DNA of 64,000 nt from Okamejei kenojei (lineage: Eukaryota), in the NCBI GenBank assembly GCA_035221665.1, contig CM069143.1:10044001-10108000 (forward strand), written 5' to 3'. Shown here piece by piece: positions 2,787-47,885 of this stretch. The position numbers and the translations under genes were made by a program. The notes under the pieces are model-generated. The model saw nothing but the letters and a program-made list of their open reading frames with translations, was not told where the DNA came from and searched no databases. The number at the start of each line of letters is the position of its first letter. The stretch's first letter is position 1.

Positions 2787-3157
2787 CAAAGATCCTATAG
2801 CAAGTAAGATGGATCACTCAACGTATTACGGTGATGGGCAGATTCATGGGTAATTTTCGGCCCCATTTCCGTAACCGGTAATCCGTAACCTAGTGCGGAG
2901 ACGGATGCCGGTTACGGAAACATCCTCGTAAAAATAAAAGTTATCTGGTTAAAATCTTCTCCTCATTTTCAGAATTTTAATTTATTAACACAAACTGTTC
3001 CCCTGCAACGTTGATTACACTGCGGGTAGGGTCGGGTCGGGTCGGGTTACTGAAATGGATGGAAAAAAAAGGCCCACGTTCCGCTCCGTTGCGTACTACA
3101 CGTCAGCCCGTTGCATTTAGAAGGAGTGGTCTATCTTGCTCTGCTATAGGATCTTTG
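2787..3157. mobile_element. MITE with CAAAGA-starting TIRs and 8-bp TSD (P-element-like or hAT-like)
   Basis: TIR caaagatcctatagca / tgctataggatctttg (16 bp perfect, imperfect to about 33 bp); TSD gtaggaag at 2779-2786 and 3158-3165. Confidence 0.85.
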
Positions 3158-3324
3158 GTAGGAAGTGCAGAACAAACCCCATGCTTCATCCACAGTCTGA
3201 ATGAATACAGCCATGCATCTGGTTTAGTTAGCTGTCAAACATTGACTATTTATGAATATTTCTGTGTAAGAAGAGTCCAACCTCAAGGTGCAGCAAAGTA
3301 TCGTTGGTGAAGCGCACCAGTAAC

Positions 3325-3560
3325 CCTTTTGTCTCCTTTTGTATCTCTCACCATTGTCCACCCACCTGCCAAACAAAAACCTGCCTCATCTGTACCCACC
3401 TATCACTCGTCAGGCTTTGTCCAACCTCCACCTCTTTTCCAGCTTTCTCATCCCGACTACAATCAGTCCGAAGAAGGTTTCAACCCAAAATGTCTCCTAT
3501 CCATGTTCTTCCGAGATGCTGCCTGAACTGCTCTGTTACTCCAGCACTTTTTGGGGTTTC
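3325..3560 (+). mobile_element. Decayed Penelope-like repeat (longer pyrimidine-rich 5' part)
   Basis: cagtccgaagaaggtttcaacccaaaatgtc (eroded hammerhead core) then gatgctgcctgaactgctctgttactccagcacttt. Confidence 0.6.
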
Positions 3561-17012: not shown

Positions 17013-17574
17013 AAATCCATCATTTATCATTGGTCAAATAAGAGTACTTCACAATGATGTGAGATCAGCATTTCCATGAATTTAGTTTCAGGTCTGTTGT
17101 GGCAAGTACAATTTATACTTAAATATATGGGCTTCATCTTCCAATCCAATGGTCCAAACTTTTAAAATTGAATTATTGCACAAATAATTCTTAATGATTG
17201 CACAAATATTTATAATATAAACTCGAAAGAGTGAAAACTTGCTGTTTGATTAACCGGAGACAATTTTTGTTATTTGAGAAGAATTGAATCCAATACCAGA
17301 GCTGCCAACTCTCACGCACGGAGCGAGAGACTCGCGCATTTCGCCAAATTCTCACACTCTCACGCCAATCACAAATTTCTCACGTTCTGACGTGAGAAAT
17401 TCTGTGATCAACGAGAATTTCAAAACTCATATCAACTGCATGGGCCGCAGGAGTTGGAGAACCGGGGCGGAGGGAGGGATGGGAGCAGAAGCAGCGGCGG
17501 GGGCAGATGCGGACAGGGAGCCGGGGCTGGCGAGTGTTTGCTGGGCTGGCGAGTCGCTCACTGCAGCTCCGGCC

Positions 17575-17735
17575 ATGGAGCAGCCTCAGTGCAAGAGTCC
17601 CGGGCTGTCGGAGGTTTTGGAAGTGTTGCGCCGCTGCCGTGAGAGTCTCTGTGTCGAATTCGCCCTGGTGACCGGCATGGACCAGGCTGTGGCTCGGTGC
17701 ATCCTGGAGGACAACCTGTGGCTGCTGGAAGAAAG
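17575..17735 (+). pseudogene. TDP2: TDP2 (TTRAP) exon-1-like fragment, N-terminal UBA-like domain
   Basis: gccATGg start; RRCRESLCVEFALVTGMDQAVARCILEDNLWLLE resembles recalled TDP2 N-terminus RRLLCVEFASVASCDAAVAQCFLAENDWEME; CpG-rich; no downstream TDP2 exons seen. Confidence 0.75.
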
Positions 17736-17837
17736 GTACCAAGCACTGGGTAGAAGCGGTGGAAGATAGTGGCCGTTAAATGGGGTTGGTTGGAGAAAGC
17801 ATCCTGCTTGCCTACAAGACTTTCACTTACTGTAACT

Positions 17838-18181
17838 GTAGGAAAAATGTTCCTGATATTGGGTGAGTTCAGAACCAGGGGTCACACAGTTTAAGAATAA
17901 GGGGTAGGCCATTTAGGACTGAGATGAGGACAAACCTTCTTCACCCAGAGAGTTGTGCATCTGTGAAATTCTCTGCCACAGAAGGCAGTGGAGGCCAATT
18001 CACTGTATGTTTTCAAGAGAGAGTTACATTTAGCTCTTGGGGGAAGCGAAATCAAGGGATATGGGGAAAAAACAGGAAAGAGGTACTGATTTTAGATGAA
18101 CAGCCATGATCATATTGAATGGCAGTGCTGGCTCGAAGGGCCGAATGGCCTATTCCTGTACCTATTTTCTATGTTTCTATG
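17838..18181 (+). mobile_element. CR1/HER1 3' fragment nested in the TIR element
   Basis: agaaccaggggtcacacagtttaagaataagggg...gatcatattgaatggc...tttctatgtttctatg, homologous to 11560-11882. Confidence 0.85.
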
Positions 18182-18247
18182 CTTGATTATGGCAATAAAA
18201 CTGAGCCACTTGATTTTTAAGCATTCATGCATGGTGGAGGTAAATGT

Positions 18248-18472
18248 AGTCATAGACTGATACAGTGTGAAAACAGGCCCTTCTGTCCAACTTGCCCACA
18301 CCCGCCAACATGTCCCAGCTACACTACCTGCTTTTGGTCTATATCCCTCCAAATCTGTCCTATCCATGTATCAACTGTTTCTTAAATGTTGGGATAGTCC
18401 CTGCCTCAACTACCTCCTCTGGCAGCTTGTTCCATACACCCATCCGCCTTTGTGTGGAAAAAGTTACCTTAA
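18248..18472 (-). mobile_element. CR1/HER1 3' fragment nested in the TIR element
   Basis: Close match to 15555-15795 (aacaggcccttc...caacttgcccacac...tcctctggcagcttgttccatacaccca). Confidence 0.85.
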
Positions 18473-18479
18473 AAAGTTA

Positions 18480-18701
18480 GCTCTTCAAAATACTTCAAAC
18501 AAAAAACATTGAAATCATACTTCTACAATGCATTAAAACATGATTTTAATACATCAAATTTCGAAAAGTCCCTTCCCTGGGAGGGGGGGGGCAGCCCCCT
18601 CCGACACCCTACCCCCCCGGTCGCTCCACTCCCTCGCCGGGTACCTCCAAGGCCAGTGATCGCTCAGCTCCCCCACTTCCAAAAACACTCCGCGGCCCTT
18701 G
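18480..18701. mobile_element. Orphan terminus of a second hAT-like element
   Basis: G/C-run subterminal block ending tccgcggcccttg, resembling a CAGGGCC-type TIR; partner end not found. Confidence 0.4.
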
Positions 18702-19254
18702 GTTCAGACAGAGAGCACTGCCAGATGTGAGCGGGGAACTGAGGCCAGTTGTCCGTGATGTCTGGATCCCAATGCTCAGTGCTTCATGTTTCGGAGTTGG
18801 CTAATGTTATTGATTTGTAATTAGCCCGATTTGTAATTAGTTGACAAAATCTTAATTTATTAATCTGGAATATCCAGGGGGATGGGATAAGTGTAATATT
18901 AAAATGACATGCAAGGTGTCAGGCTGTCTGTCACAACATACAGCCCCGATAACCCATTATTTCCTTCAGTTAAATATTGGGAAGGTAGCACTATTGTCAT
19001 TTGCTAATCAAAACAAAGATCTTTTTATTCTTGTGTTATGAATACCATAGAAAATATTATGTACTCTCAAGATGACATTAAATAGAATAATATTGCCTAA
19101 ATATATAGTTATTGGACTTTGCATTTCGTAAAAGTCCCAGCTGAGAGGAAGACCGCAAAATACTGAAAATATTGAGGGTGAAAATGACTTCAGTACAGTT
19201 TGTTAGGGAAATGAAGGAAATTGTGACAGAATACATACACAGCTGAGTGAGTAT

Positions 19255-19435
19255 AATTTTATGGATGAGAAATTGTGTTCAACCAATTGATGACTTCTTT
19301 GACAAAGTAACTAGCATGTTAGATAACAAGGAAGCCAATGAATGTAGCAAATTTTGTTGTACAAAAGTTGGTCCGTGAAGTGCCCCATAAAAGATTACGC
19401 ATTAGATAAGCACCCGTGGACTTGAACATAATAGG
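19255..19435 (+). mobile_element. Degenerate CR1 RT fragment
   Basis: Eroded C.TNL..FFDKVT..D...VPHKRL motifs (ttctttgacaaagtaact; gtgccccataaaagatta). Confidence 0.55.
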
Positions 19436-20271
19436 TTAAGTCCAGGGGGTCAGATATGGGCTTTATGTGTGGGCCAGATATATTGTCAGTGCAGAGGGGT
19501 TCGGAGCAAGGCCAAGTGTGCATCCAGAGTCAAGGTCTGGAATAGTATTAGGTGTGCAGTCAAAGCTGGGACAATGGGAGTGTTCAGCACTGGGAACCTA
19601 AGCAGGTCAGCAGCTATGATCAGGGTAGATTAGGGGGCCAGGTGCAAGGCTGGACAGGGTCTGGAATGAGAGAAGGTATGCAACTGGAGTCAGGGTCAGC
19701 AGTAGTACCAGGTGTGCAGTGAGACCCAGATTGGTCAACATGGGCCAAGTGCTTGATTATAATCTGATTTCCATACATGAATACACTAAGATCATTCATG
19801 TGCTGCGCCTGTTCATCAGAGCCTGGCTCTACTGTGGAATGTAATTAGGAATGTAATTTAGCCTAACCTTATTCATACCTAATTCAATTTAAAGCATAAA
19901 TATTGCATTCAAGTGTAAGTTAAAAGACTCGCTACAGTATGCACCAGATTGCACAATTTCAAGCTGAAAAATGCAAAAGCTCCATACAAATGGGAGGAGG
20001 GACCCCCCATCGACCCCCCATCCACCCCCCCCCCCCTCAGTCGCTACGCTCCCTCGGGCTTGGTCTCTCGCAATTTCTCATTCCCAACTCTCACCCAATG
20101 TTGGCAGCCTTGCAATACCAAAATAAGTTTGAACACCTTTCCTGGATACTTTCCTCTAATTAAATCAAAGTTAAATAAAGAATCATTTTCCCCTCTTTAA
20201 TTCTTCAGTCGTTCCTAAAACTTTTACAAAATAAACTTTCTATTACAGAGGTTTTAGAACATGTTTAAGAT

Positions 20272-37248: not shown

Positions 37249-38450
37249 TACTAAGTAATTTATACCATGCCTGTGCAGGATTAAATCCTCTTGCACATTC
37301 CATCTACCACAACAGCTAAACTCGCTGTCCGTGGCTCCCCATCCCAAAGCACTGACATCTGTTTGTAAAACCAGTGAACGTTGTTGAACCAAAATGTTTT
37401 TGGTAGTTTGTGCAATATTGATGATCCACCATTGTAATTTGGCGATGGCTTTGGCTGGCAACTGCATAGGTCTATCAAAATGACCTGCATGTTCTTTAAA
37501 TGCGTGTTCTCTAGCTCGTTGCAGACTTTGATAGTGCAGGGGTCCAAACTCCACTGCAGGGAAAGCTGCCACCAATTTACCAATAACACTGGCTACTTCC
37601 CTGATGGAGGGTTGTTTTTGTTCAGCGAGGCTGGTACAGACCTCCCTGATTTCAACAGCCTTGGCCGTAGGCAAAGTCACTGACATATCAACTGAATCAA
37701 TGACAAACCCCAAATAATCAATTTTTTGGGATGGCTCTAGCTTGTATTTTGTTGGATGGACAAGAAACCCTAACCTCTCAAACAGGTGCTGAAACTGACT
37801 CCTCAGCTGTTTCCTGAGTGTTGCTTATAATTAAAATATCATCTAGATAAGCCATCACAATGTGATTCTGTGCACGAAGTACGCCAGAACTGGTTTTAAC
37901 AATTTCGTGAACAACCCAGGAGCTGAGGTTAACCCATTGGGTAATGCTTTAAATTGCCACAGCTATCCCATCCAACTAAATTTCAAGTATCTTCGGTACT
38001 GATGATGAATTGGTACTGAATAATATGCATCTTTCAGATCTGTGGTTGCCATATAACAATCTTCTGATAACAACTTAGCAGTATTAAAGGAGTCTGTTTT
38101 AAAATGCCTATACTGGACATAGGAATTTAACTGGGTTAGATCCAGAATGACGCGACACCCACCATCTTTTTTCTGTCTGGGGAATATATTGGACACAAAT
38201 TGTTGAGGATGGTATGTCGTCCTCTCAATTACCCCTTTTTGGAACAAACCCCAATTTCTTTATTTACCTGCAGAGTTTCTGGTCCAGAAAAAAACAATAC
38301 CCGAGTAGGCATATTTTGTGCAGGTGGATGAATTCCTGACATAAACTCTATTCGAGACCCTGAGTGTCCAGTATAAACAGATCAGATGTTAAGCAGCATA
38401 ATTCATCATAAAATAACTGTAACCTACCCCCATCCGGAGGTTGTTCCCCA
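37249..38450 (-). pseudogene. DIRS RT and RNase H (frameshifted, truncated)
   Basis: FVSNIFPRQKKDGGCRVILDL, DLKDAYYSVPI, LPNGLTSAP, YLDD at 37838-37849, LQTDVSALGWGA, HGINYL. Confidence 0.92.
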
Positions 38451-45084: not shown

Positions 45085-47885
45085 GTATCTTTGCACCAGT
45101 ATCAGTCTGGAGACTGGGCAATGTTCAAGGACTTGGCAACTGACCTGAATGAATATGCCACAGTGGTTACAGACTTCATAAGGAAATGTGTGGAGGACTG
45201 CATTCCAACAAAAACCTTCCGAGTGTTTCCTAACCAGAAGCCTTGGATGAACCATGAGATCCGCATTCTTCTGTAGACCAGATCCTGGGCATTCAGGTCT
45301 GGCGATGCAGAGGTGTATAAGAAATCCAGATATGACCTTGGTAAGGCCATCAAAAAGGCCAAAAGGGACCTGCTCTAAGCTGGAGGATGAGATGGATTTT
45401 CGACAACTGTGGCAGGGCTTGAATGCCATCACCTCCTACAAGGCAAAATCAGGAGGCAGCTCAAACAACAGCAAAGCATCATTCCCTGACAAACTCATTG
45501 CGTTCTACGCATGGTTCGATAGGGAGAACACTGATGTGCCTTCCCGAGCCACCATTCGCAATGACGGTATTACAATCACAGTCACATAGGTCTACATCAG
45601 AAGATCCTTCGGAGGGTGACCCCTCGGAAAGCGCCTGGACCTGATGGTATACCCGGTCGAGTTCTCAAGACCTGTGCAGACCAGCCGGCGGGAGTTTTGG
45701 CAGACATTTTCAACTTCTCATTTCTGAGGCCTGATGTTCCCACCTGTTTTCAGAGGGCATCAATAATACCAGTGCCCAAGAAGAGTAAGATGACGCGCCT
45801 CAATAACTATCGACCAGTGGCACTAACGTCTGTGGTGATGAAGTGCTTTGAGAGGTTGGTTATGGTGCACATCAACTCCTACCTCGACAAGGACCTCCAC
45901 CCACTACAGTTCGCATACCACCACAACAGGTCAACGGAGAATGCAATTTCACTGGCTCTCCGCTCCACATTGGACCACTTGGACAATAAAAACACTTACC
46001 TCAGTCTGCTGTTTATAGACTACTGCTCGGCGTTTAATACCATCATCCCCTCCAAGCTGGTTACGACCGGATCCTCCTCCACACCCTGCACTTCCTCGCC
46101 CTGGTCCACCGTCTGGACACCAAGTGGCAGTCGGTGTTGCCTTCCGGTCGCGAGGGGGAGCAACCGGTGACGGTCCCTCTACATAGGGATTCTTTCCCTC
46201 TACTTTGGGGACCTGGGGTGGAGGGTACTGCACCGAGGTGTTCCCTGCAACCTGTTTCTCTCGTGGTTCACAGACTTCTGCGGGCTGGAAGAGCCTGTGT
46301 ACCACGTGTATATGGAGTGTGTGAGGCTGCAGCCACTGTTTGAATACCTAAAGGGGCTGCTCCTTACCTTCTGGCTGCATTTTTCACCCACCATCCTCAC
46401 CTTTGGACATCCTGTGCGCAGGGGAGAGGGTAGGGCCGAAGATGTCCTGGTTGGGTTGCTCCTGGGCCTGGCCAAGCTGGCCATCCGCGAGTCACGGCGC
46501 CGGGTGGAAGAGGGCTCTGCCTGAGCCGGCTGCTTGCCCCTTTTCCGGGGTTTCATCTGCACCCGGGTGTGGTTACAAAGGGGATACGCCCTGTCCATGG
46601 CCACCCTGGGGGATTTCCGGGACCGTTGGGCACCGCAGGGGGTTGTGTATCCTGGACAAGGATTGTAATTTAGTTGTTTAGTAATTTACTTGGTATATTT
46701 GTTTTGTCTTGTGCTATGGTGGTGGGTTCTGTTTTGTTTTATTGCGTTGTAAATACTATTTTAATGTTTGAATAAATATTTTTGATTAAAAAAAAAGTTT
46801 TTACCAAGCTCGCGGAACTGGGTCTCTGCGCATCCCTGTGCAATTGGATCATCGACATCCTCACCCACAGACCACAGTCTGTTCGAATTTGCGGAAACAC
46901 TTCATCCTCAGTAACAATTAGTACGGGAGCACCTCAAGGCTGCGTGCTCAGCCCCCTGCTGTACTCACTCTATACTCATGACTGTGTAGCCAGACATACT
47001 GCAAACTCCATCATCAAGTTCGCCGATGACACCACTGTTGGATGAATCATAGATGGTGATGAGTCAGAGTATCGAAGTGACATCGACCGACTGATCAAAT
47101 GGTGCCAGCACAACAACCTTGCTCTCAACATCAGTAAGACCAAGCAACTGATTATGGGCTTTGGTAGGGGAAGGATGAGGACCCACAATCGTATTCACAT
47201 CAATGGGACGATGGTGGAGAGGGTCAAAAACTATAAATTCCTGTCATGCATATTTCCGAAGATCTTTCCTGGACCCAACACATCGATGCAATTATAATGA
47301 AGGCACATCAGCGACTTCCTGAGAAGATCACGGAGATTCGGCATGTCGAAGAGGATTCACTAAATTTCTACAGGTGCACGGTAGAGAGCATTCTGACTGG
47401 TTGTATCGTGGCCTGGTTCGGCAACTTGAACGTCCAGGAGCCGAAAAAACTACAAAAAGTTGTGACCATTGCCTGGTCCATCATCGGCTTGGACCTCCCC
47501 ACCGTTGAAGGGAACTATCGTAGTCGCTGCCTCAAAAAGGCAGCCAAAATCACCAAAGACCCACACCATCCTGGTCACACACTCATTTCACCATTGCCAT
47601 CAAGAAGAAGGTGCAGAAGCCTGAAAACTGTAACGTCCATGTTCAGGAGCAGCTTCTTCCCTACAGCCATCAGGCTATTAAACACAGCAACAAATAAGCT
47701 CTGAGCTCTGAACTGCAAAAGACTATATTATTATTGCACTATATTTGTTATTTATTGAACTTTTTTTTTCTCTTCCCCTGTTACGTACTATGTTTACATA
47801 TTCACATAGTCTGTTGTGCTGCAGCAAGTAAGAATTTAATTGTCCCATCCGGGACATATGACAATAAAACACTCTTGACTCTTGA
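45085..47885 (+). mobile_element. Rex1/Babar LINE, 5'-truncated, frameshifted
   Basis: [88 protein letters not shown]; tail gacaataaaacactcttgactcttga. Confidence 0.93.
46065..46796 (+). mobile_element. Tx1/L1-type 3' fragment nested inside the Rex1 RT
   Basis: Interrupts IIPSKLV|TKLAELG; peptide FCGLEEPVYHVYMECVRLQPLFEYLKGLLL; aataaa plus poly(A); short ttac duplication at 46061-46064 and 46801-46804; same family as 41589-42266. Confidence 0.88.

Follow-up and report, generated by a model that had tools for sequence, protein, structure and literature searches.

A high-copy family of non-autonomous transposons carrying the first exon of TDP2 in the skate Okamejei kenojei

Introduction

Transposons with terminal inverted repeats (TIRs) that carry pieces of host genes (Pack-TIRs) have been surveyed across 100 animal genomes, for which the accessible part of the report describes four multicopy cases, including Pack-hAT-N8_XT of the western clawed frog with three copies (Tan et al. 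2021, PMC8277862); the word 'shark' is absent from its main text as accessible. Within the hAT superfamily, the accessible sections of a second study (PMC12730594) describe the groups hAT5, hAT6 and hAT7 with target-site duplications of 5, 6 and 7 bp, and place hAT5 and hAT6 with Blackjack. Here, we describe a TIR element carrying the start of the DNA-repair gene TDP2 in a 64,000-nucleotide stretch of the skate Okamejei kenojei (assembly GCA_035221665.1, contig CM069143.1, positions 10,044,001 to 10,108,000 of the forward strand; hereafter the window). A reading made from the letters of the window alone (the sequence-only reading) had proposed that a non-autonomous element captured the start of TDP2 and may have spread it. 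Our follow-up makes it probable that the window holds one decayed member of a high-copy family of non-autonomous DNA transposons with the 5' untranslated region (UTR), exon 1 and part of intron 1 of TDP2. Literature searches gave no published account of this skate element, although the family may be catalogued in Repbase or Dfam.

Results

The element and its captured cargo

The element proper spans positions 17297-20112 of the window and is one copy of a ~3.3-kb family of non-autonomous TIR transposons. The exact flanking repeat CAATAC noticed by the sequence-only reading is present as a 6-bp target-site duplication at 17291-17296, where it agrees with the family table, and at 20113-20118. 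The imperfect 13-bp TIRs that it had reported lie just inside (17297-17309, plus strand; 20100-20112, minus strand) and agree at 11 of their 13 bases here and at 12-13 of 13 in the family consensus. The left end (17297-17387, plus strand; consensus 1-91) contains TCTCACGC-type subterminal repeats, as the right end (19756-20112, plus strand; consensus 2996-3346) contains subterminal repeats of its own, and both ends are common to a TDP2-free sister family. The TCTCAC/TCTCGC motif, part of which had also been recognised near both termini, occurs four times in the first 100 bases, twice in the last 70 and never on the same strand in the intervening 2,646. Short 13-bp TIRs with subterminal repeats confined to the ends are a feature of the hAT superfamily that is present in the TDP2-carrying family.

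Protein searches agreed with the proposal that the cargo encodes the N-terminal UBA-like part of TDP2. The peptide read from 17575 matched the UBA chain of human TDP2 (6q00, E 1.3e-5) and, as its sole match among 232 candidates, the TDP2 of Leucoraja erinacea (P0002; 74% identity, E 3e-14). It covers positions 3-30 of the 43 in PF14555 and residues 3-36 of the 45 in 6q00; two UBA-like Pfam families were matched, both (PF14555 included) below their cut-offs. The domain is incomplete in exon 1, with the remainder encoded by exon 2. The reading frame is open from 17440 to a stop at 17767-17769, and alignment with a second skate TDP2 (P0003) set the start codon at 17479 and an 84-codon coding part of exon 1 (17479-17730, plus strand) that ends within the first part of the UBA-like domain. 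The ATG at 17575 with its unbroken frame, taken earlier for the start, is thus present but is an internal Met, and the donor suggested at 17735/17736 proved to be the next GT downstream of the true donor (17730/17731), which is mutated in this copy. Alignment to the host gene places a remnant of the captured 5' UTR at 17459-17478 and captured intron 1 at 17731-18470, both on the plus strand.

An intact seven-exon TDP2 was located with the L. erinacea protein on another contig (C2:145.913-145.942 Mb), so that the full gene with its own exon 1, whose locus the sequence-only reading had wanted sought, does not lie in the window. Family consensus positions 163-1182 align to this gene from the 5' UTR through exon 1 and ~0.7 kb into intron 1, and at the donor locus the alignment spans only the cargo, which leaves the parent gene outside a TIR element. 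Two repeats in the captured intron, which we take to be the 3' piece of a long interspersed nuclear element (LINE; 17838-18180) and a piece resembling a short interspersed nuclear element (18253-18462), and which both occur in high copy number, sit at the same places in host intron 1. Since intron sequence is present in the cargo, capture took place at the DNA level and not through a retrocopy; together with the parent gene on C2, this substantiates the proposed capture by a non-autonomous TIR element. Elsewhere in the genome, 107 of the 113 scored matches to L. erinacea TDP2 cover the exon-1 part only.

The two cargo junctions show a fold-back and a templated filler where a Pack-TIR might be expected to show plain microhomology. 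On the left, inverted self-matches identified a fold-back (17391-17421, minus strand), an inverted copy of ~30 end bases (~17356-17387), and later deletions blur the junction; a longer family variant, seen at two of 30 loci, keeps host sequence to ~175 bases upstream of the start codon. On the right lies a templated insertion, an 11-12-base filler copied from the adjacent cargo (18471-18481, plus strand), and beyond it the right half of another small TIR element (18482-18701, plus strand), which is also found standing alone. An initial assignment of microhomology at this right junction was dropped when the templated filler was found there. Also dropped was the idea that host TDP2 had lost its start codon, which lies upstream, and a genome search with PF03372 as a route to TDP2 returned only LINE endonucleases.

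Several further observations concern the host locus. Host intron 1 (C2:145913502-145920010) begins with GC where the element consensus has GT, so it is either a GC-AG intron or one in which both splice sites have slid by 4 bases (GT 4 bases on, CAG 4 bases into exon 2, frame kept). Near the gene are three additional copies of its last exon (C2:145731333, 145757021 and 145967605; 41-81% identical to L. erinacea TDP2 over that exon). Three left ends of the TDP2-carrying family, with partial or full cargo, are found on the opposite strand at C2:145887230-145896396, which is 17-26 kb upstream of the donor exon; these look like ordinary composite copies and not the founder.

Copy number and relatives

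Searches covered a genome of 2.76 Gb. A query of the left end together with the exon yielded 3,421 first-look candidates; the 40 that were scored were 88-100% identical, and most of the 39 among them other than the window copy start no more than a few bases from the first TIR base. With two mismatches at most, a 27-base exon motif gave 1,515 genome matches (747 + 768), one being the host gene, whereas its reversed control gave none; the resulting 1,514 cargo copies are a lower bound, and some may be segmental duplicates. Twenty copies with both ends gave a majority consensus of 3,346 bases; 19 of them differ from it by 4-6% and one by 11%. The exact 33-base left end occurs 372 times in the genome. 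Among the first 30 of these occurrences, 12 belong to the TDP2-carrying family and 17 to the TDP2-free sister family, and one is truncated. Sequencing runs under seven organism codes, from eight studies, contained 0.39-0.54 of the sampled family words, which implies that the family is common to several related species.

The sister family, with 890 candidates, shares the left 91 and right 350 bases and has a G+C-rich interior of its own. Another relative, a ~530-base element with nearly the same TIR (for example C2:145917675-145918163, inside TDP2 intron 1), gave 2,102 first-look candidates. Its G+C-rich interior contains a short ATG-started frame followed by a donor-like site, and is possibly another captured first exon.

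Target-site duplications of mixed length

Target-site duplications were tabulated at 86 loci drawn from the top matches, with both ends readable in 37. These 37 pairs comprised 15 exact duplications (two of 5 bp, seven of 6 bp and six of 7 bp), seven with one mismatch (two of 6 bp, two of 7 bp and three of 8 bp) and 15 without a duplication, against an expectation from mismatched flanks of ~0.06 exact matches of at least 5 bp per 37 pairs. Nine of the 15 pairs that lacked a duplication share a GA-rich left flank and represent a composite form, in which another left end lies further out and the exon start is partly repeated. This outer left end was located in seven of these nine copies, which yielded five further exact duplications (6, 8, 6, 7 and 5 bp). 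The 20 exact duplications overall therefore comprise three of 5 bp, nine of 6 bp, seven of 7 bp and one of 8 bp. The two termini thus co-occur with matching duplications at other loci, and the 1,515 exon matches, together with the exact duplications at different loci, bear out the suspected spread of the captured TDP2 start.

In the sister family, both ends were present at eight of 11 loci, with exact duplications of 6, 7, 7 and 8 bp, two 6-bp near-matches and two loci with none. The ~530-base element, which served as a control, was judged by eye to have only 8-bp duplications where readable (three exact and several near-matches among 15 pairs). Because this control has a single length, the mixed lengths of the TDP2-carrying family are unlikely to be a calling artefact. 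Neither the canonical 8-bp hAT duplication (1/20 exact) nor the fixed 6-bp duplication of hAT6 (9/20, the commonest length only) is the rule here. The sequence-only reading had called a 6-bp duplication atypical for hAT; this holds less than it supposed, as hAT groups with 5-, 6- and 7-bp duplications are described. What stands out is that a single family has several lengths, a mixture which staggered cuts 5-8 bases apart could produce.

Fate of the captured exon in the copies

To assess selection, changes at non-CpG sites were counted in 49 copies that had been selected from their DNA or their ends. With 297 nonsynonymous and 94 synonymous changes (nonsynonymous fraction 0.76 versus 0.74 expected, P 0.49), the exon evolves neutrally in the copies. 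Frameshifts were present in 18 copies and stops in six, while the start codon, frame and donor were all kept in 20. CpG sites differ ~4 times as often as other sites, a decay consistent with germline methylation of the copies. The roles previously suggested for the exon (a mobile promoter or first exon, a decoy peptide or a small-RNA source) are so far unsupported, given no purifying selection and an incomplete UBA piece.

A rather unlikely alternative to a passive cargo is that the CpG-rich gene start aided the element, through open chromatin or transcription that raised its spread, and that some copies lend a promoter and first exon to other genes. Among bat Helitrons, promoter and first-exon cargo went with higher copy numbers than other cargo did, according to the accessible part of PMC4224331, and both the 20 of 49 copies with an intact start, frame and donor and the composite subfamily, which bears the exon start twice, fit such a benefit. 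However, the sampled left ends belong to the TDP2-free sister family no less often than to the TDP2-carrying one (17/30 versus 12/30), though the interior of the sister family is itself G+C-rich, and the main family form lacks most of the upstream promoter. The window copy, which is probably inert, has lost its donor, and the 239 window open frames of at least 62 residues matched only reverse transcriptase families, with no acceptor gene evident at a length threshold that short exons would escape.

Change in exon 1 of the host gene

Host exon 1 is only 59% identical to L. erinacea TDP2 (P0002), compared with 81-98% for the later exons. Over 75 aligned residues, the element agrees with the second skate TDP2 (P0003) and the host differs at 14, the reverse holds at three, and element and host are united at nine. 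At the nucleotide level, host exon 1 differs from the family consensus at 28 of 234 bases, with 21 changes from A/T to G/C and one from G/C to A/T, while the distal intron repeats show 15 in each direction. GC-biased gene conversion at a promoter gives G+C-ward change without selection, and is the simplest cause of the change in the host exon.

These same data could instead reflect an epigenetic conflict in a vertebrate genome. In this scenario, which we regard as quite unlikely, a transposon with loose cuts (5-8 bases) would have scattered the TDP2 start to ~1,500 silenced sites, silencing would spread from these to the promoter and exon of the real gene, and selection would have driven the host gene to diverge, its exon 1 escaping cross-silencing. 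The excess of residues changed in the host (14 against three), the low identity of its exon 1 relative to the later exons and the CpG decay of the copies all fit this scenario, and a conflict of this kind has been reported in maize, as described in the accessible part of 10.1101/777037. On the other hand, the host changes run one way (21 versus 1) and this bias fades to parity in the distal intron repeats, and part of it may be CpG decay on the element side. GC-biased gene conversion would moreover suffice without selection.

Relationship of the carrier to hAT elements

The TDP2-carrying element contains no transposase or transposase remnant, and its mobilising enzyme can be approached from the ends alone. 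One hAT locus (L318) has a PF05699-bearing frame (E 1.9e-10), and ~280 bases beyond its stop lies a right terminus that agrees with the end of the family consensus at 18 of 19 bases. A search with L318 returned 61 matches, and three of the 30 fetched loci end in the same bases (18-19/19) and are 86-88% alike; L318-type loci thus appear similar in age to the TDP2-carrying family. One of the three, 3.75 kb long, has a left end resembling that of the TDP2-carrying family (z 6.5) and a broken transposase; the other two showed no left end in the stretch fetched. A further hAT family, found with a pattern for a transposase motif, has the same left-end layout with a repeat that differs by one base (score 83 versus a shuffled mean of 21, standard deviation 7). 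Nine independent copies of this family showed six exact 6-bp duplications, one exact 8-bp duplication, one near-match and one without a duplication. Altogether, the left-end layout matches three transposase-bearing families (z 6.5-9, two at z 6.5), two of which make 6-bp duplications. The terminal 18-19 of 19 bases and the left-end layout are thus shared with hAT-transposase elements, but the subterminal repeats differ, so none of these is the exact parent.

Other candidates for the partner were rejected. Tip100-like and Ac-like families lack the ends, and a young hAT family has different ends and looks much younger than copies that differ by 4-6% from their consensus. Copies of this young family (L370-L390, for example L375 and L376) are 97-99.7% alike, two have 848-codon open frames, and its left end was found once in five tries, with a 6-bp duplication.

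From the ends and duplications, the mobiliser was likely a hAT of the clade with these related ends and 6-bp duplications, and the carrier is likely a hAT6-like hAT that we do not file as hAT6, its exact partner not having been found. It is very unlikely that the carrier belongs instead to another TIR superfamily with variable duplications and resembles hAT ends by convergence or chance. Such an origin would fit the single 8-bp case among the 20 exact duplications, the missing exact partner and the lack of a transposase remnant in the element, but it leaves the matching 19-base terminus ~280 bases after the stop of a PF05699-bearing frame, and a left-end layout shared with three transposase-bearing families, two of them with 6-bp duplications, to coincidence.

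Remaining features of the element and window

Between the small TIR element and the right end lies a non-coding interior (18702-19755), in which the window copy lacks ~500 consensus bases at 19004/19006. The source of this interior was not located, as the best 40 genome matches were copies of the TDP2-carrying family itself. Positions 19244-19423, which had no search match, resemble what we take to be a very decayed reverse transcriptase fragment of an old LINE, which suggests a second captured piece of host DNA. Elsewhere in the window, LINE-type reverse transcriptase fragments (PF00078) at 37966-38259 and 45565-47042 were the sole Pfam matches among the 239 frames scanned.

Discussion

The plainest alternative, that the window exon is the real first exon of TDP2, a paralogue or a retrocopy, has an open frame and 74% identity to skate TDP2 in its favour, but it is refuted by the full gene with its own exon 1 on C2, by the lack of any later exon with the copies (107/113 scored matches being to the exon-1 part) and by the intron in the cargo. 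We therefore favour a decayed copy of a high-copy non-autonomous transposon with a TDP2 cargo. Capture of the TDP2 5' end likely occurred by template switching during DNA repair or replication, because one junction shows a fold-back and the other a templated filler. A hAT6-like hAT transposase, making cuts at a somewhat variable distance, likely drove amplification in trans, and the cargo has likely been carried since as a neutral passenger.

Several observations weigh against parts of this account. Family ends were found at none of 30 top PF05699 loci (with 1.5-kb flanks), at none of 20 longer hAT loci and at one of 20 further loci; in the sole positive, L318, the likeness stops at the terminal 19 bases. 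None of the hAT loci checked proved to be an autonomous element with the subterminal repeats of the family, and the 3.75-kb transposase-bearing copy with both ends shows no readable duplication. The hAT6-like label would accordingly be one of ends and duplications, and not of a transposase tree with hAT5, hAT6 and Blackjack references. The duplication lengths rest on 20 exact cases, a small sample drawn from top-matching copies, and no empty site was seen in the four runs compared, all of which left the unique left flank uncovered. Forty copies chosen by protein likeness showed fewer nonsynonymous changes than neutral (P 1e-4), an apparent constraint that we attribute to that choice, and neutrality is a family average with which a few co-opted copies remain compatible.

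The mixed 5-8-bp duplications point to a hAT lineage with some play in the distance between its two target cuts. An older state of TDP2 exon 1 survives in the copies; set against it, the host exon shows its fast G+C-ward change, and gene conversion can be compared with a silencing conflict. In practice, the copies will confound TDP2 annotation and read mapping. The present analysis contributes a table of duplication lengths, a connection to transposase-bearing hAT families, a test of neutrality and a description of how exon 1 of the host gene has changed.

Plant Pack-MULEs are likewise high-copy non-autonomous TIR elements with mosaic interiors and a bias to G+C-rich gene 5' ends, but they have long TIRs and ~9-bp duplications, compared with 13-bp TIRs and 5-8-bp duplications in the skate, and carry many cargos at low copy, whereas the skate family carries one cargo at very high copy. 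The duplications shorter than 8 bp are comparable to those of hAT5, hAT6 and hAT7, but each of those groups has one length in the accessible description (PMC12730594), while the skate family mixes 5, 6, 7 and 8 bp. HelibatN3 of Myotis bats carries the same kind of cargo in about a thousand copies, according to the accessible part of PMC4224331, but is a rolling-circle Helitron, in contrast to the TIRs and target-site duplications of the skate element; TIR elements in a cartilaginous fish thus appear to have taken the part played by Helitrons in bats. The core features of multicopy Pack-TIRs that were tested, as given in the accessible text of PMC8277862, are all present here: TIRs with a duplication, a parent gene, DNA-level capture and repeated transposition after capture, the latter seen as 20 exact duplications at different loci. 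Pack-hAT-N8_XT is similarly a TIR element with a DNA-level copy of a gene 5' end, an identifiable parent, G+C-rich cargo and several transpositions marked by different duplications, but has three copies in the frog compared with at least 1,514 in the skate family. Judged against the cases in that text, the spread of a gene piece on a scale of ~1,500 copies is rare for TIR elements in animals, and at least 1,514 copies of one first exon raise the ceiling for animal TIR capture by more than two orders of magnitude.

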